Origin: a virus
Taxonomy: Duplodnaviria > Caudoviricetes
Length of the DNA: 37,839 nt
Virus record (IMG/VR): IMGVR_UViG_3300032254_000015
Location: 1-37,839 of that record
Direction: 5' to 3' (one strand)
In this document: positions 4,960 to 20,551 of the stretch, piece after piece
Numbering within the stretch: position 1 is the stretch's first letter
How the letters are laid out: every line of letters starts with the position of its first letter
The notes under the pieces: model-generated
Database searches by the model: none
Seen by the model: the letters and a program-made list of their open reading frames with translations, nothing else
What the model was told of the DNA's origin: nothing
Translations under genes and position numbers: made by a program

Positions 4960-5990
4960 TATAAGGTGTCCTCATCTTGTTCTTCTTCTGGTACCGGAAT
5001 GAGATCTAATGCTTCAGGTGGCATAACTTCTAACTCAGCAAGTTCACCATCCTCATTAATGGTGAGTGTGGTATGAACAAGCAACAAGTCGGCATTGAGT
5101 TCGTTGTATGCGTCAATGACAGGGACTAATTTATTGGGCACCCATAAGCCGTCATCATGTTTCCAGCCATTAACAGTGTACGTCTTTGCTTGTGATTCTC
5201 CGAAACGAACATTGCGGTCATTTTCTGCAATCACTTTTGCATCATTCAACGTAAGGTCATCAGGAACGATAACAATGGTGCGCGCTTTTCTAATATTTTT
5301 ATCTATAGCCTTCCCTGAAACATGTGCAGCTGCTGTACCGTTGAGAGTATCGTTGCCTGACTGTTGGCCGGACACGATATAAGTACGATAGCGTTCTCGT
5401 TTACTGCGCGTGCTAGTGGCACCAAGAATATTTTCACCAAGAATTAATGATGTACCAAGACGTTCTTTGCTGGCACGTGTAATTACTAAATCACCTGAAG
5501 GATTGCTGGTTAAATGAACGGCACGATAGGATGCTAATTTTGCTAAAAACTCATAGTGCGTTTCGCCTACATCACGCGTTGCTTTTTTAAACGCTTCGCC
5601 AACATCACATTCAACAACCACATTAATGCCGAAGGGGGCACATTCTTTTTTTGCAATGGCAACCAGGTCTAAATTTGGGTAATCAATCTTTTCACCAGAA
5701 CAGTCAACCAGATCACCCGTCTTTGAACGGCCTACAACAGTCAATGTATGATTAGTAGCATCATAGTCTGCACTCACATCATCAACATAACCGGTGATAA
5801 CAGTTTCACCATCAATCTCAACAACACATGGGCTGTCTTCTTTAATAGGACGGCGCTCTTTCGAGTTCGCCCATTTATCAGTAAGCGTTAAATCAAACGT
5901 GTCAGCAAAACGACGCATACCACGCTGGATTTTAATTTCTTTCCACCCCCCGTAAATTTGACTATCCACTTTAAGCGCTAACTCAGACAT
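4959..5990 (-). CDS. Baseplate hub, Mu gp44 (gpP)-like
   Basis: GW..I.I.R, TGYVD, GRSKTGDLVDCS, LGENI, W.PN motifs. Confidence 0.92.
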   Translation of the reverse strand: MSELALKVDSQIYGGWKEIKIQRGMRRFADTFDLTLTDKWANSKERRPIKEDSPCVVEIDGETVITGYVDDVSADYDATNHTLTVVGRSKTGDLVDCSGEKIDYPNLDLVAIAKKECAPFGINVVVECDVGEAFKKATRDVGETHYEFLAKLASYRAVHLTSNPSGDLVITRASKERLGTSLILGENILGATSTRSKRERYRTYIVSGQQSGNDTLNGTAAAHVSGKAIDKNIRKARTIVIVPDDLTLNDAKVIAENDRNVRFGESQAKTYTVNGWKHDDGLWVPNKLVPVIDAYNELNADLLLVHTTLTINEDGELAELEVMPPEALDLIPVPEEEQDEDTL

Positions 5991-7140
5991 CAGTTAATAC
6001 CTCCAGCGGTTGGCCACCTTGTACAAAGCCCGGGTGCGCAATTTTATTGCGTGTGACTAACTCTTCTTCACGCGTGGCATCACCATATACCTGGTGTGCA
6101 AGCACTAAAGCCGGTAACCTGGTTAACGGTGTATGTTGTTTAATTTTAGGTAGCCTGGCAGCACGGGTGCGTAGGTCAGCAATAATGATGGCGCGTAATT
6201 CAATGAGGCTAAAATACATGTCATCGTTAATCGGTGAACCATCGACCACATCAACCTGTTCAATTTGTGCATCCAACGCATCGACCAGGTCTTGTTGAAC
6301 GGCAACAGCATCGTCACTTGTTGCAAATGAGGTGCGTGTGGTGGTTTTCGCAGCTTCGGCAATGGACACACGTTTCGTTAATGCAACAACGGCCTGTTTA
6401 GAACGGGCGGCTTGTCTACCTTGTGGTGTATTTGTATTACCCGCAGCTGGATCGTCTTTATCAAATACCCCCTTGTATAAATTTAAGGCATTACCGGGTT
6501 CATCTAATAAAGTTTGAACGCGAGATAAAGAACCCGCCAACGCACTACCAAAATTAAAGGGTACGCGAATCAAGCCAGCGAGTGGTTGGGTAACAGCCCC
6601 CACCGCGTTATCAACAGCCCCTAAAATGTTGTCAACTTCACCGAGTATGTCATCTACATGATCTTGCGCTAAACCAATCACATCAAAAACTTTGGCAAAG
6701 TCATTAATGCTATCGGCAATTGATTTTTCAGCCTGCTTGTTAACACCCGCTGCAGTGTCATAGGTTGAGTTGGGGTAGCGCGGTTCAGATTCAGCTTCAA
6801 TATAAGTGAGAGTAAACGTCACCTTGCCATGAGCACGAGAAGACTCACTCATCCGTGCGTTGATAATGGTCACGGTCAGCATGCCATATTTCGGATGCAG
6901 CAAGGTACCGTCACCTGGTAACTCAATGGCATCAATCAATTTATCGCGGGCTTGCTCATAGCCTTCGCCCATTACCGTGACTTGAATATTGTATTTGCGG
7001 ACTTTTTTACCCAAATCTTCAGCATAAGCATCATCTCGCATTGGATACTCATGCACTTGAACACGACGGCCAAACTCTAAATCCTCACCGGTAACAATGA
7101 ATTCCGCATCACGGAACTGGCCAATCACATCGTGGCTCAT
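5983..7140 (-). CDS. DNA circularisation protein, Mu gpN/gp43-like
   Basis: GRRVQVHEYP..D..AEDLG, G.LLHP.YG, C-terminal RN.I.HPGFV. Confidence 0.92.
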   Translation of the reverse strand: MSHDVIGQFRDAEFIVTGEDLEFGRRVQVHEYPMRDDAYAEDLGKKVRKYNIQVTVMGEGYEQARDKLIDAIELPGDGTLLHPKYGMLTVTIINARMSESSRAHGKVTFTLTYIEAESEPRYPNSTYDTAAGVNKQAEKSIADSINDFAKVFDVIGLAQDHVDDILGEVDNILGAVDNAVGAVTQPLAGLIRVPFNFGSALAGSLSRVQTLLDEPGNALNLYKGVFDKDDPAAGNTNTPQGRQAARSKQAVVALTKRVSIAEAAKTTTRTSFATSDDAVAVQQDLVDALDAQIEQVDVVDGSPINDDMYFSLIELRAIIIADLRTRAARLPKIKQHTPLTRLPALVLAHQVYGDATREEELVTRNKIAHPGFVQGGQPLEVLTDV

Positions 7141-7673
7141 ACGAAGCCCCCATGCTGTGCTATACTCATTTCATTATTAAAGTCACAAAGGACAGTGTTA
7201 TGAAAAAGGTGTTTCTTGTTTTGATGTTGTTGCCGAGCTTTGTATTTGCCGAGGATATGGCCAAGCTTGTCATTAAAGGTGTTTCTGAACATAACCAGCC
7301 CATCGTTATAGAAGCCATTGAAGAGGTGCGCAAAGTTTGCCCAGGGTTTGATAAATACTGGGGTGATGTTGAGTCGGCAACAGCTGCTGTATGGAAAGGC
7401 CAAGACTGGGACTATCGCCGTAAAGAGTTTGGTTGGAAAAACTACCTTATGCTGAGAATAAAAATTAAACACGACACCAAATTTATTCCGCTCCAATACA
7501 GCGTGTTTGGACATACACTTCAATATGATATTGGTGGTGGCAATCATTCGAGTATGTTGACTAAAAAAAGAGCTGCTCAATATTTTTGTGGCGGTTATAA
7601 AATTAATGATGAGGGTGGCGACACGCATTTGTATAGCCCAGCCTTTGTTATATTGGATAAATTGAAATAGCAT
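7137..7673 (-). CDS. Possible 178-aa coupling ORF overlaying the moron
   Basis: Start overlaps the tape-measure stop (TAATG); stop overlaps the gpN start (ATGA); product resembles no family I recognise. Confidence 0.4.
   Translation of the reverse strand: MLFQFIQYNKGWAIQMRVATLIINFITATKILSSSFFSQHTRMIATTNIILKCMSKHAVLERNKFGVVFNFYSQHKVVFPTKLFTAIVPVLAFPYSSCCRLNITPVFIKPWANFAHLFNGFYNDGLVMFRNTFNDKLGHILGKYKARQQHQNKKHLFHNTVLCDFNNEMSIAQHGGFV
7158..7192 (+). promoter_or_regulatory. Extended -10 promoter and SD of the antisense moron
   Basis: TGcTATACT at 7158-7166; AAGGA at 7188-7192 before ATG 7200. Confidence 0.6.
7200..7670 (+). CDS. Exported hypothetical protein (antisense moron in the tail operon)
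   Basis: Signal peptide MKKVFLVLMLLPSFVFA; own promoter and SD; two Cys in the mature part. Confidence 0.8.
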   Translation: MKKVFLVLMLLPSFVFAEDMAKLVIKGVSEHNQPIVIEAIEEVRKVCPGFDKYWGDVESATAAVWKGQDWDYRRKEFGWKNYLMLRIKIKHDTKFIPLQYSVFGHTLQYDIGGGNHSSMLTKKRAAQYFCGGYKINDEGGDTHLYSPAFVILDKLK

Positions 7674-9196
7674 TATTGCATCCCACCCACAGCTAATCCG
7701 CTGTCCACATCAACCTGCATATTTTTACTGCTTACTTTTTTGACGGTAGCCTTGCTGCCGCCTTTAGGTTCAACAGACACAGTGAGCTTCGCTTCTTTAT
7801 TATTTAATTCTCTACCAACAGCAGCACCAATATCATTAGCTAAGCTACTCTCTTTTTTACCATTGATAGATTTAGTTGGAACAACACCAGGTTGAGGACT
7901 GTCATCTGTAAATAAACTTTTAATACCACGCCGCGCATTACCTACCGTTAACTCTGCCATATCATTAAAAACATCAACGGTGAATCTTTTTACAACAGCA
8001 CCAAGCGCATAATCAATCGCTTTAACGTTTGTCCATGTATCTGTAGCTTGAAAATTATCCATTGCGTTTGCGATATCTTTTGAAGGTTGGCTTATAATAG
8101 AATTCATTATTTCAGAAGTTTTGTTACTTATACTTTGCTGTGCTGCTTTTGCAGTACTCGCATTAATACGTGCATCACCTCTTACTAAACTGCCATCTGC
8201 AGTCATTGCCGCTAACTCTTTAAGACGATCTCGACCGCTCGAAACACCTGGGCCGGCAGGCTTTGCGAAACCCTGAAATACCTTTACTGCAGTTTCACCA
8301 AAATATTTATTCAGCGTAGTAAAATCACCTTTTGTAACATCAAATATTTCAGGTATTAGTTTTGATGGCTTTCTTAGCATTTTGCTATTAGGCTGACGAA
8401 ACTCTACGCCAGCATTACGAAATTTCTCCTGAACTTCTTTTTTATTAAGAACAGACATAAAGGCTTTAAGCGTTTCAGCAGTTATGTCAGCATTTTTTGT
8501 TGCATCAATAATGATTTGGGCAACTGCAGTTGCATCTGTTAATACATCCGGTGTTGAGCCTACAACAGAGGTCACAGGAGAAATCAAGCCTTTACCCGTT
8601 CTGGCTAACTCGCGAATAGGAACAGCACCCGTTAAACTTTGTTTATATTGCACGCCGAGCAAGTTTAAAACTTCACTTGCTTCGGTTGTGCCATTTTTAA
8701 AAGCAATGCCAATCATGGTGCCTGCATCTTCACCGGCCGTCTTTGTGGCTTGCATAAACAACGCCATATTACGAAGGTTTTTCATGGCGTTTGACTTATC
8801 ACCTGTCATTGCAATAACTTTATCGAAACCTGAAAGAATGTCTGTTTTGTCTAATCGAATATTCGGATCATTAGCCAGTGAAATAAGTTCTTTTTTGAGT
8901 ACGGCAATTTCCTCTACGGTCATGCGAGCATCTGTTTGCATGCGAGTTAAATTCGCATCAAACTCAACAACTTTATTTACAGAGCGTATAGCAGCGGCGG
9001 CTGTTGCGATGGCCGCTATTTTTTTACCCATGCCGCCGAATGATTTATTTAATTTAGTTGTTGTTCGACCGAGCCCTTTTAAGTTCCGACTGCTTGTTCT
9101 TGAAAAACGCTGTATATTTTTTTCGTTGCGCTTTAGTTGGCGATCAAGATTTCCTTTGAGGTCAACAACAATAGAAGTTTTAATTTCATTCTGCAT
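7673..9196 (-). CDS. Tail tape measure protein
   Basis: Between chaperone and gpN; helical, Ala/Lys-rich; 507 aa. Confidence 0.88.
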   Translation of the reverse strand: MQNEIKTSIVVDLKGNLDRQLKRNEKNIQRFSRTSSRNLKGLGRTTTKLNKSFGGMGKKIAAIATAAAAIRSVNKVVEFDANLTRMQTDARMTVEEIAVLKKELISLANDPNIRLDKTDILSGFDKVIAMTGDKSNAMKNLRNMALFMQATKTAGEDAGTMIGIAFKNGTTEASEVLNLLGVQYKQSLTGAVPIRELARTGKGLISPVTSVVGSTPDVLTDATAVAQIIIDATKNADITAETLKAFMSVLNKKEVQEKFRNAGVEFRQPNSKMLRKPSKLIPEIFDVTKGDFTTLNKYFGETAVKVFQGFAKPAGPGVSSGRDRLKELAAMTADGSLVRGDARINASTAKAAQQSISNKTSEIMNSIISQPSKDIANAMDNFQATDTWTNVKAIDYALGAVVKRFTVDVFNDMAELTVGNARRGIKSLFTDDSPQPGVVPTKSINGKKESSLANDIGAAVGRELNNKEAKLTVSVEPKGGSKATVKKVSSKNMQVDVDSGLAVGGMQ

Positions 9197-9329
9197 TTAT
9201 TTGTCGCCAGTATGTTATTACTTTATAAATTGGAAACTGATGTACGTCGTTTAAGTTCAAACCAGTAACAGACGAAACCCCAATACAGATGCTTTCAATG
9301 CGAGGCAGTATCCCCGCTAAGACTTTCCC
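9186..9329 (-). CDS. -1 frameshift extension of the tail assembly chaperone
   Basis: G GGA AAG at 9329-9323; -1 frame open for 47 codons to TGA at 9188-9186. Confidence 0.8.
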   Translation of the reverse strand, partial: GKVLAGILPRIESICIGVSSVTGLNLNDVHQFPIYKVITYWRQINAE

Positions 9330-9697: not shown

Positions 9698-10048
9698 TTA
9701 CACCTTTTCTGGCCGTTGGCCGCTCATCTGCATTGGTGCTTTTCCGTCGCCGCCAAACTCAACTGGTTCAGCAGTATATGCTTCACGCATCGAATATTTT
9801 TGGCCTGTATCTGCCTCAAATAAAACGGTTACTCCTTCGATATCGCTCAACTCAATTGCATCAAAATCTTTTGTTTGCAGAACAGTGAATTTAAGCATAG
9901 GTATTTCATTCTTTTTGGTGAAATAGTTCACTTCGCCATGCATTTCACCGTCTCTCTTGTAACCACCAACATTTAGCGTTGCTTGATTTTCTGTTGGTAT
10001 TTTTTTTCCGTCGATACGGATATCGACTTTACCTGTGATTTGTCCCAT
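9698..10048 (-). CDS. Tail tube protein
   Basis: G...IRIDG, TVLFEADTG..Y; follows the sheath gene. Confidence 0.88.
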   Translation of the reverse strand: MGQITGKVDIRIDGKKIPTENQATLNVGGYKRDGEMHGEVNYFTKKNEIPMLKFTVLQTKDFDAIELSDIEGVTVLFEADTGQKYSMREAYTAEPVEFGGDGKAPMQMSGQRPEKV

Positions 10049-10067
10049 GTTTATTTCTCCTTATCGA

Positions 10068-11549
10068 TTAACGACGGAATTCAAGATGGCCAGCGGTAAC
10101 CCGATGCTGCCCTATAAGTTTTGGTGAGCCATACCAGTTAAGTCGCGCACGATCTCCACCACCAATACCATCACCTATTTCAGCAAAGAGGGTTTCTTTA
10201 TAGCTCGCATAATCTTGAACCCATCCTTTGGCTTGCATCTCTTTATACAGCGCTAACAGCTCAATGATGGCTATTTTCGGTTGCATAATGGGCTGCCCTG
10301 CAGCAACTTCCTCCGTGTCTTCAGCTAACTTATGACGTGGATACTTACTACCAAACATGGAACGCTGTTCATAACGAACACGGTCTAATGTTTCTGGTGT
10401 GTTGATGTCTAGGTAACTGTCATCAGCTAAACCAGCGGCATTTAATTGATACATGGTGATTTGGCGTTCAATTTGTACGCTGCCATCACTGGCTACGGTG
10501 TACGTTGCAATACCGTCATATAGCAACTGGTTACGCTCAGTGTCTTCCCAGCGGATTTCTTTAGCCGGCGCTTTTAAACCTGGGAGCGTTAATGTTTGCA
10601 ATGGACGAGCTGGATCTATCGCTAAACTTTTAGCCCCAATAATCCCATTCACCGCAGCCCAAATGTAAGGTGGTTCTGGCGAAAGGTTTGTCCCCATACT
10701 TGTGATATGTGGACAATTACGACTATTACCGTATGTACCTGTTGCCGCATGCGTTCCCTTATAAGCAGCAAAAGCACGGCAACCCATTTGTTGCATAGGC
10801 CCAAACCGTTTAATGAGTTCATTTTCTAGCGCCACTAAGTTTGCTGTGTCGGTAAACGGCATAATGATCCAGTTGTACCATTCGCTGCTAATCGCTGCGA
10901 TAACCGCAGTGATATCTGGGTTAGTGGTACCACCGGCCATATCGCCAAAGCTCATGACAACACCGCTTGGTGTTTTTTCACCGTAGTAGTTCATGCGAAG
11001 GTCAATATCGTTACCGGTTTCACCTTTCCACTTGCAGATAAGGTCAACTTGATTAGTTATCACGCCATTTACAACCGCATCAACCGATAAGGTTTTGTCT
11101 GCAGTAATAGCAGCAGCAATGGCGATTGCAATTTCATCATCCGTGTCACCTGAAGCGATACCCACCAATACTTTTTTACCGCCAATATAAATTGCCAAGG
11201 TACCTGAACCGGTTGCATCCCCCGTTGCGGTAATGGTTCCAGCCGCGGCAGCACCAGCAGCATTTTCATCTAAGGCAATGCCCCACGTTTCCATAAACTG
11301 TTCAGCATATTTAATGGCTTTAACTTCTTCAGCCAACATCGCACCGCGTCCCCAATACTCTTCAGCCTGGTCATCTGTGTTAACACGTGTGGCCACCGCC
11401 TCAGCAACGGTACCGGTGGCTAAGCGTTGGCCTATGACTAATACTTTAAAGTTTGGAGATGCATTATTGGCAAGACTATTATCAAATTCTATAAAAGTAC
11501 CGTTGATGCGCAAGTTGGCAGGTACATCATTAAATGGAATGGGTGGCAT
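10068..11549 (-). CDS. Tail sheath protein (Mu gpL-like)
   Basis: FIEFDNS.A, DPARPLQTL.L, ERNQLLYDGIAT, KYPRHKL. Confidence 0.95.
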   Translation of the reverse strand: MPPIPFNDVPANLRINGTFIEFDNSLANNASPNFKVLVIGQRLATGTVAEAVATRVNTDDQAEEYWGRGAMLAEEVKAIKYAEQFMETWGIALDENAAGAAAAGTITATGDATGSGTLAIYIGGKKVLVGIASGDTDDEIAIAIAAAITADKTLSVDAVVNGVITNQVDLICKWKGETGNDIDLRMNYYGEKTPSGVVMSFGDMAGGTTNPDITAVIAAISSEWYNWIIMPFTDTANLVALENELIKRFGPMQQMGCRAFAAYKGTHAATGTYGNSRNCPHITSMGTNLSPEPPYIWAAVNGIIGAKSLAIDPARPLQTLTLPGLKAPAKEIRWEDTERNQLLYDGIATYTVASDGSVQIERQITMYQLNAAGLADDSYLDINTPETLDRVRYEQRSMFGSKYPRHKLAEDTEEVAAGQPIMQPKIAIIELLALYKEMQAKGWVQDYASYKETLFAEIGDGIGGGDRARLNWYGSPKLIGQHRVTAGHLEFRR

Positions 11550-13324: not shown

Positions 13325-13729
13325 TTATGCCTTAGACTCTTCAGCAAGCATTTCCATCCATGCCTGGTTACGTTCATCTGCTTTCACTTTCCAGCCAAGC
13401 ATTTCAGTTAAGACATTTGCATCTGGCATTCCATTACTTGTCCATTTTGTTTTGTCTTCTTTATCGAGTTTGCTTACAGCACCCTTGATAGCAGAAAGAC
13501 GATCTTCAAGTTCTTCTGGTGTTGTTTTTAAATTAACAATATTAGAACTTTTGTTTGTTGGTTCGTCTTCCGGCTCATCTTCGCTTGGTTCACTGATGGC
13601 ATTTAGTGCCAATAATGGTTTCGCTTCTTTTTCAGATAATTCGATAGTGTTGTTTTCTTTATCATCAGGATGATATTGAGTACCGCTAAACTTCACTGGT
13701 GAATCAACATTGTAAATACGTTTTGCCAT
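13325..13729 (-). CDS. Mu gp35-like protein following the capsid gene
   Basis: GGAG SD favours ATG 13729; WT..G.P..L..LG..V...ER motif. Confidence 0.7.
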   Translation of the reverse strand: MAKRIYNVDSPVKFSGTQYHPDDKENNTIELSEKEAKPLLALNAISEPSEDEPEDEPTNKSSNIVNLKTTPEELEDRLSAIKGAVSKLDKEDKTKWTSNGMPDANVLTEMLGWKVKADERNQAWMEMLAEESKA

Positions 13730-13754
13730 GTTCATTTCTCCGGTTATTGGCTCC

Positions 13755-13782
13755 CTGGTCATGTGGGTACCCACATGACCAG
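13755..13782. repeat. Perfect 28-bp palindrome downstream of the capsid gene
   Basis: CTGGTCATGTGGGTACCCACATGACCAG. Confidence 0.85.
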
Positions 13783-13819
13783 ATCATCACCTTTTCTCTT
13801 GGGTTTTTGTATTCAGTTC

Positions 13820-14749
13820 TTAATTGATAGCAGTTTGTAATAAGAAGCCACTTGTGACACCGGTTAACAATGGTGCACGTTCATACTGCGTGCCATACAC
13901 CCAGCTCTTAATGCTGCGCTCGTAATATGGATCTTCTACGTGCGGGTTATTCTTCATTGTGTAGGTATAACCAAAACTAGGTTCTTGAATTGTTGAAGCC
14001 ACTGTTGGCACATAAGCTAAAACAACATCTTTGCCCCAGATATCAATAGGGGCATCTGCATCATCAAAGGCAATCGCTTTACCAATAATTACCTTATCAA
14101 TTTCAAAAACAGCTGCCAGAATTTCTGCTGTCACGATGCCGCGCTCTGAATATTTGATTTTTTCAATAATGCTTGGATGATTTTTAAGCTTACTAAGAAC
14201 CAATGATGGAATTTCGATAACGTTTGGATACGTACCTGTTGATGAACGAATCGCTTCCCGTGCCGCTGTAACATCGGCAATAGGATCTGAATTCACATAA
14301 TCATCCCACCGATCAGTTCCGGCTAAAATGTTCTTATGATTTGCATCATACTTAGTGGCATCACGTGCAAGGTCAGCTTGTTCTTTTTCAATAACTAAAG
14401 ACTCAATTCGCATAACACCATTTACTGCACCTGTTCCTAGATCGATGCCAGGAACAATTTCAGCTTCACGTTGGTGCTCAATTGGAACGACACCTTCAAG
14501 CGCATGGTTAGTTAAGCCATAAGAACCTGCTGCGTAACCAAACTGAACACGTTTGGTTGCAGTACCCGGTGCACGTGCAGTGTTATAAAGACGGAAACCA
14601 TCTTTATTGAATTGGATTATTTTTCCACCTGATGTTTCTACTGGTACGCGAGGAAATAATTCCATACCGATATGGTCTGGGTGTTTATAACCAAGTACGA
14701 CGTTCGATAAAATTGGGTCGATGACTCGACGCTGGGCAGAGTTAGGCAT
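13820..14749 (-). CDS. Major capsid protein
   Basis: DPILSNVVLGY, RAPG, PSFGYTY; after protease and cement genes; strong SD. Confidence 0.88.
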   Translation of the reverse strand: MPNSAQRRVIDPILSNVVLGYKHPDHIGMELFPRVPVETSGGKIIQFNKDGFRLYNTARAPGTATKRVQFGYAAGSYGLTNHALEGVVPIEHQREAEIVPGIDLGTGAVNGVMRIESLVIEKEQADLARDATKYDANHKNILAGTDRWDDYVNSDPIADVTAAREAIRSSTGTYPNVIEIPSLVLSKLKNHPSIIEKIKYSERGIVTAEILAAVFEIDKVIIGKAIAFDDADAPIDIWGKDVVLAYVPTVASTIQEPSFGYTYTMKNNPHVEDPYYERSIKSWVYGTQYERAPLLTGVTSGFLLQTAIN

Positions 14750-16605: not shown

Positions 16606-17013
16606 ATGCTTGGTTCGATGAAGTTTACACATATCATTATGGCATTACTCATGAGTATGGTGATGATGTTTAGTATGACCGGCGCTGCTACTGCAGCAGG
16701 TTGTTCTAACCCAACACATCAACATTACTTTATACAAAACTCAACTGAAGCAACGCCTATGGCAATCGCATCCACTGGAAAGATGACTCAAGCAGTTAAC
16801 TTGGACAGCGTTTCAGTTGCCAATAAAGAAACCGATAATATTAGTTCATATAATAAGACTAGCTCTCACCGCTTAATTGCAGATGGTGGTCCAGGCTATT
16901 TATATAAACGAAGTCATTCGGGAACAGTACAACACAGTAATCGACATGTTCTGGCAGTGGCCTTTAAACATCGGTCGCCGACTGTTGGTTGGGAAGACTC
17001 CCGAAGTTACTAG
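16606..17013 (+). CDS. Hypothetical exported protein (moron)
   Basis: AGAGG SD; hydrophobic N-terminus ending ATAAG; followed by a terminator. Confidence 0.65.
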   Translation: MLGSMKFTHIIMALLMSMVMMFSMTGAATAAGCSNPTHQHYFIQNSTEATPMAIASTGKMTQAVNLDSVSVANKETDNISSYNKTSSHRLIADGGPGYLYKRSHSGTVQHSNRHVLAVAFKHRSPTVGWEDSRSY

Positions 17014-17078: not shown

Positions 17079-17564
17079 TTAGTTGCTGGAATCATTTCTT
17101 TCGTGACTAGCTTGATATGCAAGGTTAATTATAATTAATGTAATAATAGTAATTTCAAACAAATTAGCAGAAAAAGATAAAAGCATAAATCTAAATGGCC
17201 AGACAAAAGCCATATTGGAAAAACCAATAAAAGATAAACCCGCCGTTGTTAACAAGTTTACTATTGTGAACCCATAAAAATAAAAAAAGACGCCTAAATA
17301 ACCAACCCGCCTATACCTAATAAATGATTGACTATTAATAAACCCAAATAGAATTGTAATGATAGCGGCCAAAAATCCTAGCATTGAAAATGAAAAAACA
17401 GCTATGAGATTTGAAATATCAATCCGAGATGTAAATAGTGCTAACGTATATTCATCTGTTTTAAAATGGCTATATATCAGATACACGGCTATGCCAGGTA
17501 TCCACGCTATGGAGATCAGTAATGCTAGCAACTTTATTTTTTGTGTATTTTTCATCTGACTCAT
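17079..17564 (-). CDS. rexB: RexB-like multi-TM exclusion effector
   Basis: About 4 hydrophobic segments; YRRVGY loop like lambda RexB IREYGY (recalled); directly after the rexA-like gene. Confidence 0.72.
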   Translation of the reverse strand: MSQMKNTQKIKLLALLISIAWIPGIAVYLIYSHFKTDEYTLALFTSRIDISNLIAVFSFSMLGFLAAIITILFGFINSQSFIRYRRVGYLGVFFYFYGFTIVNLLTTAGLSFIGFSNMAFVWPFRFMLLSFSANLFEITIITLIIINLAYQASHERNDSSN

Positions 17565-18399
17565 ATTCTTTTACCTTTTCAGATAATACAGCATTTGCTT
17601 TAATCTTTCCTATGATTTCATCATGTAAAAAACGTTCGTCTCGGGTTTTTATTATATCTGCAACTCCACCCGAACCTGCAATATACAAATCGATTAAGCT
17701 ACCTTGTAACTCTTCTTTAGCACGTATCAGCATTTTGTCCAGTCCATTACTTGGAACTTTGTTGATGAATTTTTGAACAGCACTTTTAATATTTCTTCTT
17801 GTACGTGGTTTAATAGTGATGTCGAATGAATCAATATCAGAGAATTCTTCAGTTGTTCCACCTACCATTTTTCTTAAATGATTAAAGGCATCGTTCTCAC
17901 TATTTACTGTAATAACAGATCTTCCAATAAACCCCATTTTAAGAGCTTCAGCTTTTGTACTTTCATGCATAATAGGATGAGTGACGAACCAATAATCATC
18001 AATCCCAATTTCCGTAAATATATCATTAACAAAATCCACGAAAGATTTTGATTTAGGTGCCATCATTGTTGACGCAAAACCAAAATAGTATTTATCAACA
18101 TAAATATAAGATGCAAAACCAAGGCTTTCATCTTTATCCAGAAGATCATAAATTTCATCCACTTCTAAATCAGTAGAACGAATTGTCTTAATTATTTCAT
18201 GGCTGCGCGTAGTTAAAAATAAATATAAATTTAGTCCGGCAGACAATAAGTAAACATTTTCATCATTATGTAAAAATTTATTTTTAAAGGCTGGATTATC
18301 GTAATCACAAAATGCTTTAAAGAATGGTCGCATGTCCATTATAAAATGCTGTTTATTAGAATCATGCTCTAATGAGTATGTGTGGTAATTAAGCTTCAT
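17470..18399 (-). CDS. rexA: RexA-like exclusion sensor
   Basis: Motifs collinear with lambda RexA as recalled: DESLGF.S, GFA, M.FIGR, DS.DI.IKP, RAK[DE]E; GGAGG SD. Confidence 0.82.
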   Translation of the reverse strand: MKLNYHTYSLEHDSNKQHFIMDMRPFFKAFCDYDNPAFKNKFLHNDENVYLLSAGLNLYLFLTTRSHEIIKTIRSTDLEVDEIYDLLDKDESLGFASYIYVDKYYFGFASTMMAPKSKSFVDFVNDIFTEIGIDDYWFVTHPIMHESTKAEALKMGFIGRSVITVNSENDAFNHLRKMVGGTTEEFSDIDSFDITIKPRTRRNIKSAVQKFINKVPSNGLDKMLIRAKEELQGSLIDLYIAGSGGVADIIKTRDERFLHDEIIGKIKANAVLSEKVKEYESDEKYTKNKVASITDLHSVDTWHSRVSDI

Positions 18400-18647: not shown

Positions 18648-19034
18648 TCAGAGTTTTATTAATTCATAATCTAAATTTGGCGACAAGGATTCCTCTGTTT
18701 GAGATTTTTCAAGAGAAGGAGGAAGTTCTAATAACTTGCTGTCGTAATTGTTTTCCTTCTGACAAAAGCTGGAGTTATTTACTGCCTTAGTGAATACAGC
18801 TTCTTTGAATGGTGTCGCTATCTGTCGTAACTCGGCTCTGAGCAATCTGTTTTCCTGGACTGTGTCGAAAAAAACACTGATGAATATTGTTGTAACTAGG
18901 CCTAGTAACATCCACCAAAATGGATGGCGGGATTTTTTTCCTTCAAGACCTTCTAATGCAATGGCCGTTGTTATTTTTTTGCTTTCTGCATTATGTTTTA
19001 TATTTTTTAACCACTTTCGCCTTTTGTTGCTCAT
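18648..19034 (-). CDS. Single-TM hypothetical protein co-oriented with the repressor
   Basis: AAGGAG SD before ATG 19034; basic N-terminus; TM segment FWWMLLGLVTTIFISVFF. Confidence 0.65.
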   Translation of the reverse strand: MSNKRRKWLKNIKHNAESKKITTAIALEGLEGKKSRHPFWWMLLGLVTTIFISVFFDTVQENRLLRAELRQIATPFKEAVFTKAVNNSSFCQKENNYDSKLLELPPSLEKSQTEESLSPNLDYELIKL

Positions 19035-19740
19035 CGATATCTCCTTGTTCTTGAACTTCTTCAGCAAGTTGAAGTAAGTCGATTAAATTATCAGGAACTT
19101 CATTATCATCGTCATCGCGAATGAGAGGGTAAAGCATTCGGATCACCTTAGCTTTTTTGGCGGGGTGTACCTTTAAACCAAGTTCTTTAATATATAACTC
19201 TACACATTCTATGGCAATTTCTAGTGATTCTTGGTCTAAGGGTTTAGTTTCATTTTTTAGACTAACTATGATCTGATATAAATTCCGGGCATATTCATCT
19301 ATCTTTTTTACCCATTCATGCTTTATTTCTGGTTCTAACAGAATCTGCTTTAAACCTTTTATTACACAGTTAGCATAATATTCAGCCTGAGAACCCATAT
19401 CCTGATGCTCGTACTTTAATTCAACAGGTTCCCTAACAGCAAAAGAAGACAAGTTATCTGAAGAGTCCATTTGTCTTTTGGAGTAATTGAGTGGGCTGCC
19501 AGTATCATCGTCAAGCATCATTGGCGGGAAGCCATGATAAATCCAGTTAAGAGATATCCCTTTATCGATTGCCCAACTATCAATTTCTCTGTGTGGGATC
19601 GCGTCCTTTTTTTTCCATGTGGAAATGTTGCTTCTAGACACACCTAGCTCCCTAGCCACAGCGGCATCTTTACTTGTACCAATAAACTCTTTAAGCCTAT
19701 TAAAGACAACATCAAAATAATTGTCGTTATTCTCGGACAT
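18991..19740 (-). CDS. Phage immunity repressor (CI-type N-terminal HTH)
   Basis: RLKEFIG...DAAVARELGVSRSNISTWKKKDAIP...SLNWIYHG; divergent from ner; GAGG SD before ATG 19740. Confidence 0.85.
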   Translation of the reverse strand: MSENNDNYFDVVFNRLKEFIGTSKDAAVARELGVSRSNISTWKKKDAIPHREIDSWAIDKGISLNWIYHGFPPMMLDDDTGSPLNYSKRQMDSSDNLSSFAVREPVELKYEHQDMGSQAEYYANCVIKGLKQILLEPEIKHEWVKKIDEYARNLYQIIVSLKNETKPLDQESLEIAIECVELYIKELGLKVHPAKKAKVIRMLYPLIRDDDDNEVPDNLIDLLQLAEEVQEQGDIDEQQKAKVVKKYKT

Positions 19741-19853: not shown

Positions 19854-20096
19854 ATGCACCACGCAGACATTTTCTGCCTCTTAATGAAGAAAAACGTGAC
19901 GCTCACAGCACTCGCTAAAGAAGAAGGTGTTGGGGTCAGCGTTGTTTCTGAAGTCATCCGTGGCAAAAAAGCCAGTTTTGCTGTCGCAACGGCCATTGCT
20001 GCCAAGGTGGGTAAAAGCCTCAACACCCTGTGGCCTGACAAGTATGACCACGCACCACGTCCACTTCGTCGACCCTCGGCACAGGCGGTAGCATGA
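19854..20096 (+). CDS. ner: Ner-like transcriptional regulator
   Basis: MHHADI...L....TL..LA, IA..VG.....LWPDKY. Confidence 0.88.
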   Translation: MHHADIFCLLMKKNVTLTALAKEEGVGVSVVSEVIRGKKASFAVATAIAAKVGKSLNTLWPDKYDHAPRPLRRPSAQAVA

Positions 20097-20551
20097 AGCT
20101 ATTTTCTCTTAAGTGCTTGTTCAGCAAGTTCAAGATGTTCATCAGCACATTTAGGGCAAAGAGTGAGATCCCAGTCGATCACTCCTGTGCCGGTATAAAC
20201 CTGAGTAAGACCAGTAACCCAACCATCAAAGAGCATTTGCCAAGACAAAGAGTTGCTCGGGTCGATTTCCGTCGGTGGACATTTTTCTTTAACAAAGTCG
20301 GTAATCTCAACGTTCTCCGTTTTCCCACAAAAATGACATTGAGCAATACCGGAATCAATAATTCTTTTTTTAGGGCCAGAGCTAATGGCCTTCATAAACC
20401 GGTTGCGATAGGTGAAACGTTTTCTGGGGTCACTCATTATTTATCTCCATCTTTAATTTCATCAGCAACAAAAAAACGAAAGCGGGCGCTGATTGCACGC
20501 CTCAGTCGAAGCGCGTTATTTGAAAATAAATTTAACAGCCAAGGGGGATGA
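20093..20551 (+). CDS. Possible 152-aa coupling ORF overlaying an antisense gene
   Basis: ATGA overlap with the ner stop and ATGA overlap with the next start; no recognisable family. Confidence 0.4.
   Translation: MKLFSLKCLFSKFKMFISTFRAKSEIPVDHSCAGINLSKTSNPTIKEHLPRQRVARVDFRRWTFFFNKVGNLNVLRFPTKMTLSNTGINNSFFRARANGLHKPVAIGETFSGVTHYLSPSLISSATKKRKRALIARLSRSALFENKFNSQGG
20099..20437 (-). CDS. Antisense C4 zinc-binding hypothetical protein
   Basis: CHFC...CPKC; GGAGA SD upstream. Confidence 0.7.
   Translation of the reverse strand: MSDPRKRFTYRNRFMKAISSGPKKRIIDSGIAQCHFCGKTENVEITDFVKEKCPPTEIDPSNSLSWQMLFDGWVTGLTQVYTGTGVIDWDLTLCPKCADEHLELAEQALKRK

Follow-up and report, generated by a model that had tools for sequence, protein, structure and literature searches.

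Stop-free operon-strand reading frames across antisense genes in the tail operon of Mu-like phages

The stretch of DNA analysed here (in the following referred to as the window) comprises the 37,839 nucleotides of the virus record IMGVR_UViG_3300032254_000015 and has a GC content of about 42%. Genes predicted to encode the transposase A/B, the Mor/C activator, gpN and the gp41 chaperone (PHROG 310, 296, 836, 184; PF07157, PF23746) identify it as a Mu-like (transposable) phage. In its leftward tail operon a gene on the opposite strand, termed cargo 1, is located between the co-oriented genes for the tape measure protein and for a gpN-like protein (Table 1). The operon strand across this gene forms an ORF of its own, the bridge, which overlaps the tape measure stop codon at its 5' end (TAATG) and the ATG of gpN (7140) with its TGA at the 3' end (ATGA). 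An earlier note on this DNA had described the operon strand as stop-free between these two junctions, and both were confirmed by reading the letters. The last codons of the tape measure gene carry an SD-like GGTGGGA serving the bridge start (duplex -6.3 kcal/mol).

Table 1. Coordinates of the features at the tail operon locus and at the second locus in the window.
Feature	Position	Strand	Description
Tape measure protein gene	7673..9196	-	PHROG 973/794; stop TAA (7675-7673) overlaps bridge ATG
Bridge ORF 1	7137..7673	-	178 codons, stop-free, coupled at both ends, codon-aligned antisense to cargo 1
Cargo 1	7200..7670	+	156 aa, predicted exported, two conserved Cys, unnamed family; without TTA/CTA/TCA
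Extended -10 motif TGcTATACT, predicted promoter of cargo 1	7158..7166	+	sequence motif
SD AAGGA of cargo 1	7188..7192	+	7 nt 5' of ATG 7200
G-run SD-like site of gpN	7147..7151	-	within the end of bridge ORF 1
Mu gpN-like gene (DNA circularisation protein / baseplate hub)	5983..7140	-	PF07157, PHROG 184
Bridge ORF 2	20093..20551	+	152 codons, ATGA-coupled to ner-like gene and next early gene
Cargo 2	20099..20437	-	112 aa, two CxxC pairs, SD GGAG, without TTA/CTA/TCA

The location of cargo 1 inside the leftward operon and its own SD sequence were as proposed earlier, whereas the promoter likewise attributed to it is a sequence motif: the extended -10 site has no -35 match and is therefore not among the promoters listed by a sigma-70 scan of the window. 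A terminator search for cargo 1 yielded one weak hairpin (7744-7760) inside the tape measure gene, which corresponds to chance level (1 found, 0.8 expected). The tape measure gene also contains a 256-codon antisense ORF (8484-9254, + strand) without any family match that is probably a shadow ORF.

Cargo 1 belongs to a family of 497 representatives at E<=0.001 (about 500 clusters) with conserved Cys, GW and GH motifs; it has no match in Pfam or PHROG. Its structure model, which is a confident one (pLDDT 80), has no Foldseek match at E<=0.001, the best VIA match (Z 5.1, rmsd 3.3-3.9, 85-101 aligned) is too low for naming a fold, and the matches in the ESM Atlas are all below 0.9 and all unnamed. 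Based on the gene layout and its signal-peptide-like N-terminus, cargo 1 is likely to encode an envelope protein expressed in the lysogen, such as a superinfection-exclusion or defence factor.

In order to compare the same junction in relatives, 139 tape measure/gpN loci were collected from viral genomes, of which 120 could be resolved. Both genes abut in 87 of them (gap of -4 to +17), two show a short spacing of 92 and 122 nt, and 31 carry inserts of at least 175 nt, all of which, as well as that of the window, hold an antisense gene. A locus was regarded as bridged if an operon-strand ORF starts at -4 to +2 of the tape measure stop and ends at -3 to +14 of the gpN start. This applies to 31 of the 32 antisense inserts (31 viral and the window), counting L121, in which the open coupled frame was read and the cargo start was not located. 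In a second set of 83 loci (77 GTDB, 6 metagenome) 18 of 71 resolved loci are bridged, seven of them repeating viral loci; the 16 bridged GTDB loci, 11 of them new, confirm together with the viral set the expectation of the earlier note that the operon strand stays open and coupled in relatives with different cargo. The second set includes the genera Vreelandella, Halomonas, Billgrantia, Marinobacter, Pseudomonas, Bordetella and Pusillimonas. The viral and GTDB loci combined amount to about 41 distinct bridged loci, and at least nine unrelated cargo families occur (nine among 39 distinct bridged loci). Since the letters of the junctions vary among the bridged loci (TAATG, ATGA, GTGA, TTGA, TAG-ATG), it is the arrangement rather than the sequence that has been kept.

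The sole miss, L012, is a Mu-like locus with Mor present, in which all three operon-strand frames contain stops over an antisense cargo of 75 aa. This cargo, a small membrane protein of a family that is bridged elsewhere, has five TTA/CTA/TCA codons. L012 possibly represents the loss of a bridge, a fresh insert or a decaying prophage, and it demonstrates that an insert of 240 nt can exist without a bridge. In a gpN tree of 170 sequences the bridged and direct labels change 15 times compared to 34 times in shuffles; as three bridged rows are labelled direct in it, the tree was not used for counting bridge origins.

According to a scan of the whole window, the two loci in Table 1 are its only doubly coupled ORFs holding an antisense ORF. 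A 135-aa gene at 16606-17013 (+ strand), which lies where the lysogeny region meets the head region and runs opposite to the adjacent genes, is unbridged with six stops in its aligned antisense frame. Apart from one candidate in G020, a genome-wide scan of six relatives gave no additional junctions at which a clear cargo with an SD is present, and in GC-rich genomes such a scan returns ordinary genes with shadow ORFs. The G020 candidate (C1:11304-11693, - strand) is a doubly coupled 129-codon ORF over an SD-bearing ORF of 116 aa in the lysis region and probably represents an ordinary gene's shadow.

As cargo 1 and the bridge are codon-aligned, stops on the operon strand can arise only from the cargo codons TTA, CTA and TCA. 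TTA or CTA is used in none of the 13 leucine codons of cargo 1 and TCA in none of its seven serine codons (0/20 combined); phage-wide, TTA and CTA account for 46% of leucine codons, with TTA being the commonest (40%), and TCA for 25% of serine codons. The earlier note had suggested a codon-shuffle null model. When cargo 1 was resampled synonymously with the phage codon usage, the frame stayed open in 1 of 20,000 trials (P about 5e-5), which excludes chance at this locus; with the base composition of cargo 1 itself it stayed open in 0.002 of trials. None of the 47 other genes of the window is open in the aligned antisense frame. Thus, the open frame is not what the codon usage of the genome would produce, and the bridge is almost certainly a real and selected feature.

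It might nevertheless be argued that the bridge is a shadow ORF, its aligned frame being open through codon bias and its overlaps coming free with the ATGA and TAATG junctions; the 5' start of the bridge may indeed be the old gpN start left behind by the insertion. In GC-rich relatives many tape measure/gpN control windows contain an open antisense frame, and chance often suffices for an open frame in GC-rich members (per-locus P 0.07-0.9). For the low-GC members, however, this explanation is largely refuted, the per-locus P of an open frame being 0.002-0.011 (window, L001, L002, L005, L017), and neither the GC content of the window nor its commonest leucine codon favours an open frame there. 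Moreover, the GC content of the cargos is below that of their backbones (0.40 vs 0.43 in the window; 0.47-0.49 vs 0.61-0.62 in L094, L019 and L020), yet only TTA, CTA and TCA were lost. In 24 cargo clusters (<50% identity), which were chosen as bridged with unbridged misses such as L012 counted separately, all aligned frames are open compared to 2.3 expected from their own base composition. Taken together, we consider a shadow ORF extremely improbable.

Searches for homologs of the cargos outside phage operons, intended as a control, gave hits in 0 of 401 genomes, in 1 of 401 (the known locus) and in 2 of 342 (one of them L236). Searches for cargo homologs gave no match in the phage collection and one match among plasmids, so the outside-operon control rests on one gene; in this single case the plasmid homolog contains two codons of the avoided kind. 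When the three closest cargos were used to scan viral sequences, no locus could be confirmed. L236 carries a cargo-family gene (1483-2106, + strand) behind a tape measure gene, with an open, 5'-coupled frame and gpN missing, as the prophage is truncated.

The codon tally was extended to 28 cargos, including L012 and leaving out L074. TTA occurs 0 times compared to 71 times TTG, CTA in 3 of 185 and TCA in 2 of 71 cases, and GTA, CCA, ACA, GCA, CGA and GGA are used at least as often as in the backbones. The loss of TTA, CTA and TCA, which costs the cargo no amino-acid change, goes along with a codon-aligned reverse frame as in ambigrammatic sequences. The aligned frame accommodates both junctions in 27 of 29 loci, compared to 0 and 1 for the other two frames.

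An alternative function would be that of a working protein, for instance a late-expressed inhibitor of the cargo similar to anti-Tab or Ith. There are precedents in anti-Tab, which is coupled to terS beside the antisense gene tab (PMC10884400, accessible part), and in Fc02 gene 10, which overlaps olg1, both products being described as excluding phages in the available text of PMC9936078. The bridge, however, is less conserved than the cargo in 11 of 11 aligned-frame pairs (24-43% vs 45-73%), and likewise in the L143/L144/L146 family (75-81% vs 91-93%). In five non-overlapping pairs cargo-changing sites differ at 0.12-0.17, whereas sites that are silent in the cargo and change the bridge differ freely, at 0.495, and doubly silent sites, of which there are only 18, at 0.436. 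The NN/NS ratio of the bridge (0.7) is similar to that of a meaningless antisense frame of gpN (0.6; L001/L002). These rates and ratios indicate that the cargo is conserved and the bridge peptide is not, while stops are kept out; purifying selection on both proteins, as in a two-protein overlap, was not observed with these 18 doubly silent sites. Furthermore, the peptide of bridge ORF 1 has no PHROG match and no Pfam match above the cut-off, its exact sequence is absent from the protein collection searched, and it is not predicted to be exported, unlike the cargo. A working protein therefore seems highly improbable. Very probably it is the presumed translation of the bridge, and not the resulting peptide, on which selection acts.

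Start sites were analysed in the 39 distinct bridged loci; L032, L114 and L121, which are bridged with an upstream-extended bridge, are outside this set and inside its 'direct' control. An SD sequence is present at the bridge start in 87% of the 39 loci compared to 27% of background starts, and gpN has its own SD (below -4 kcal/mol) after the bridge in 95%. Close to the start of gpN, 31 of 39 bridged loci have the motif TGnTAnnnT on the cargo strand, compared to 6 of 107 directly joined loci, three of these six having later been re-classed as bridged. This motif often shares bases with the SD of gpN. In L007, L018 and L023 the gpN SD (GGAG) and the -10 of the cargo share bases on opposite strands, with GGAGTATAGCA reversed reading TGCTATACTCC; in the window, L001, L002 and L005 both elements have moved apart.

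The earlier note had also pointed to a recurrence of the design at 20093-20551 (bridge ORF 2 and cargo 2). This was verified, as ATGA overlaps are present at both ends and the P of an open frame is 8e-4 if the aligned frame alone is considered and 0.045 if any frame is allowed. A homolog of cargo 2 is present in L145. In a comparison of the ner junction in seven phages (the window and six others) one is without insert and six carry antisense cargos of three families. Each of the six inserts is crossed. Two have one codon-aligned ORF that overlaps the genes on either side, three have an ORF that lies outside the aligned frame and ends 2, 14 and 24 nt short, and one has a relay of two overlapping ORFs.

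The tight junctions raise the question of whether the bridge serves translational coupling only, handing ribosomes over to gpN in order to maintain the proportion of tail proteins, with no involvement of Rho. Of 28 bridged loci, 27 have a bridge ending at +4 or +14 relative to the start of gpN, and the direct contact of tape measure and gpN in most resolved viral loci (87/120) would be in line with such a role. On the other hand, gpN nearly always keeps its own SD, the bridges at the ner junction may stop short or consist of two ORFs, and Q-type prophages tolerate uncoupled gaps at the tape measure/gpN junction. Coupling as the only function therefore seems unlikely. Since gpN keeps its own SD, covering the RNA with ribosomes may outweigh strict coupling.

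Rho loads on untranslated RNA that contains more C than G, and gpN, going by Mu, is not known to have a promoter of its own. The C-minus-G skew is +0.052 for the bridges compared to -0.021 for gpN, and +0.157 for the bridge of the window. According to the accessible parts of the respective reports, ribosomes on uORFs shield Rut sites and Q-lambda has been proven to suppress polarity (PMC12360218), and the late genes of Mu depend on the activator C at four promoters (PMC12867686; PMC4461284). No sign of an antiterminator was found in Mu-type phages.

In 28 genomes searched for regulators, Mor/C was located on the same contig 16-22 kb from gpN in 13 bridged GTDB loci, with Q nearby in none, and Q-type genes were detected 12-20 kb upstream in seven unbridged enterobacterial loci; the remaining loci are truncated by the ends of their contigs or lack both regulators. 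L207 is bridged, and neither Mor/C nor Q was found. The enterobacterial loci with antisense genes at the tape measure/gpN junction are unbridged in 5 of 5 cases, with stops in every operon-strand frame, and lambda bor and lambdap78 likewise have stops in all three. A resolved Q gene and an antisense gene are combined only in L180 and L205 (Q with an internal stop), L172 and L187 being unassigned and L198 lying outside the search. The contrast between Mor and Q is essentially one between two clades and thus confounded by clade.

Based on these sequence comparisons, we propose that the bridge is probably a translated spacer whose ribosome cover would keep Rho from ending the late transcript before gpN. 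The cargo, with its promoter motif and SD, sits backwards between two normally abutting genes. Ribosomes finishing the tape measure gene would restart on the bridge, probably at the SD and start once serving gpN, cross the C-rich antisense RNA, thereby shielding it from Rho, and be released at gpN with its own SD. In Mu-type phages, in which the late genes are switched on by the C/Mor activator, such a cover would be needed in the absence of an antiterminator, and Q-antiterminated phages would not need it. The late transcript would furthermore shut the cargo off during lysis. Both the C-rich bridge strand and the lack of bridges in Q prophages fit Rho polarity.

The earlier note had likewise explained the bridge as ribosome-covered, preserving coupling and avoiding Rho polarity. 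The open frames of the relatives, the unconstrained peptide and the C-rich strand are consistent with the cover; strict coupling is the weaker part in view of the SD of gpN. Several observations argue against the proposed role in Rho polarity. L012 possesses Mor and is nevertheless unbridged, the exact -4/-1 and +4/+14 junctions fit plain translational coupling as well, and this reading gives no account of how a fresh multi-stop insert survives until it is recoded.

The ribosome cover might instead prevent decay of the operon RNA or its hybridisation to the transcript of the cargo (RNase E or RNase III). The sense and antisense transcripts would overlap fully, and for the narnavirus reverse ORFs, which are required, ribosome-protected RNA has been proposed (PMC8316113, available part). 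This would not predict the bridge-free Q-type phages, however, and RNase III was not the principal mechanism in the 80alpha noncontiguous operon as far as described in the accessible text (PMC11087260), so we regard RNA protection as improbable.

A literature search for stop-free bridges over antisense genes, with subscription papers and supplements largely outside its scope, found none. The closest known systems are noncontiguous operons, gene 10/olg1 of phage Fc02 and the ambigrammatic narnaviruses. In the noncontiguous operon of S. aureus and phage 80alpha (tha/ith) an antisense gene is also located inside an operon, with its own promoter there and a promoter motif here, and the expression states would exclude each other; the accessible part of the report describes no stop-free doubly coupled frame, whereas here the antisense gene is recoded for one (PMC11087260). 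In the transposable Pseudomonas phage Fc02 an operon-strand ORF following ner lies over an antisense lysogen-expressed gene, corresponding to the place of bridge ORF 2. As far as the available text goes, both products exclude and no bridging or polarity role is offered; here, in contrast, the operon-strand peptide is unconstrained (PMC9936078). The narnaviruses, according to the parts accessible, keep a codon-aligned reverse ORF open by avoiding the same three codons, with translation itself proposed as the function, but they are eukaryotic RNA viruses with a genome-long reverse ORF, unlike the short operon piece joined to flanking genes over many cargos described here (PMC6884476; PMC8316113). 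The shielding of Rut sites by uORFs (tnaC, speFL, cruR) is similar in that a ribosome occupying an ORF prevents Rho from reaching the RNA; judging from the available part, these are short signal-sensing leader peptides, in contrast to a long, sequence-free, intra-operon frame shared with an antisense gene (PMC12360218).

Morons, as conceived for HK97 and HK022, are extra genes with an own promoter, an own terminator and lower GC between genes that abut in relatives. The cargos resemble them in their insertion between genes adjacent in relatives, the promoter motif, the GC content below the backbone and the swappable gene content, but they are oriented backwards in an essential operon, recoded at synonymous sites and devoid of an intergenic terminator, the stop of the cargo being 2 nt from that of the tape measure gene.

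The findings may hint at a more general rule, which we put forward tentatively and with some doubt: a phage lacking an antiterminator could carry a backward gene in an operon only if the gene is recoded for both strands. The ribosome-binding region of gpN, doubling as cargo promoter, would then represent a standard slot for any cargo that has lost TTA, CTA and TCA, and the junk frames, translated at the level of tail genes, could be a nursery for overprinted genes including counter-defence proteins. If this holds true, a bacterial frame would be selected for being translated and not for its protein, recognisable by the three-codon signature, and the occurrence of defence and exclusion genes of temperate phages inside essential operons would be explained. 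The signature could separate real antisense cargo from mis-annotation, find slots of defence genes without homology and provide a design rule for backward cargo in engineered operons. The question of translation-transcription coupling would become testable by one silent base change.

The idea of the earlier note that bridges are a source of overprinted genes is reflected in suggestive cases only, in Fc22 and JBD26. In Fc22 (L233) the low-complexity C-terminal half of gene 17 (10496-9874, - strand) covers an ORF of 74 aa on the opposite strand (10001-10225), which probably corresponds to olg1. Gene 17 is followed by an ORF of 42 codons that overlaps the gene 16 start, and the bridge is provided by the extension of a real gene. 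The Mu-like late operon of JBD26 (L232) harbours, like the loci described here, an antisense cargo, tab, which is self-promoted; in the accessible part of the report anti-Tab is, by contrast, a working protein overlapping only the 3' end of tab (PMC10884400). An unannotated 77-codon ORF with a TTG start (13625-13858, + strand) overlaps the anti-Tab stop in the sequence TTGA, crosses the rest of tab and ends 5 nt before terL. It possibly represents a bridge in a laboratory phage; it is not codon-aligned and could be due to chance.

Downstream of the repressor gene, the window contains a RexA-family gene (PF15969, E 3e-62) followed by an ORF of 161 aa without PHROG match (17079-18399, - strand), which likely encode a RexAB-type exclusion pair in a Mu-like phage. 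A further ORF with a predicted membrane segment (18648-19067, - strand) is read in a different frame from the repressor gene, whose 3' end it overlaps.
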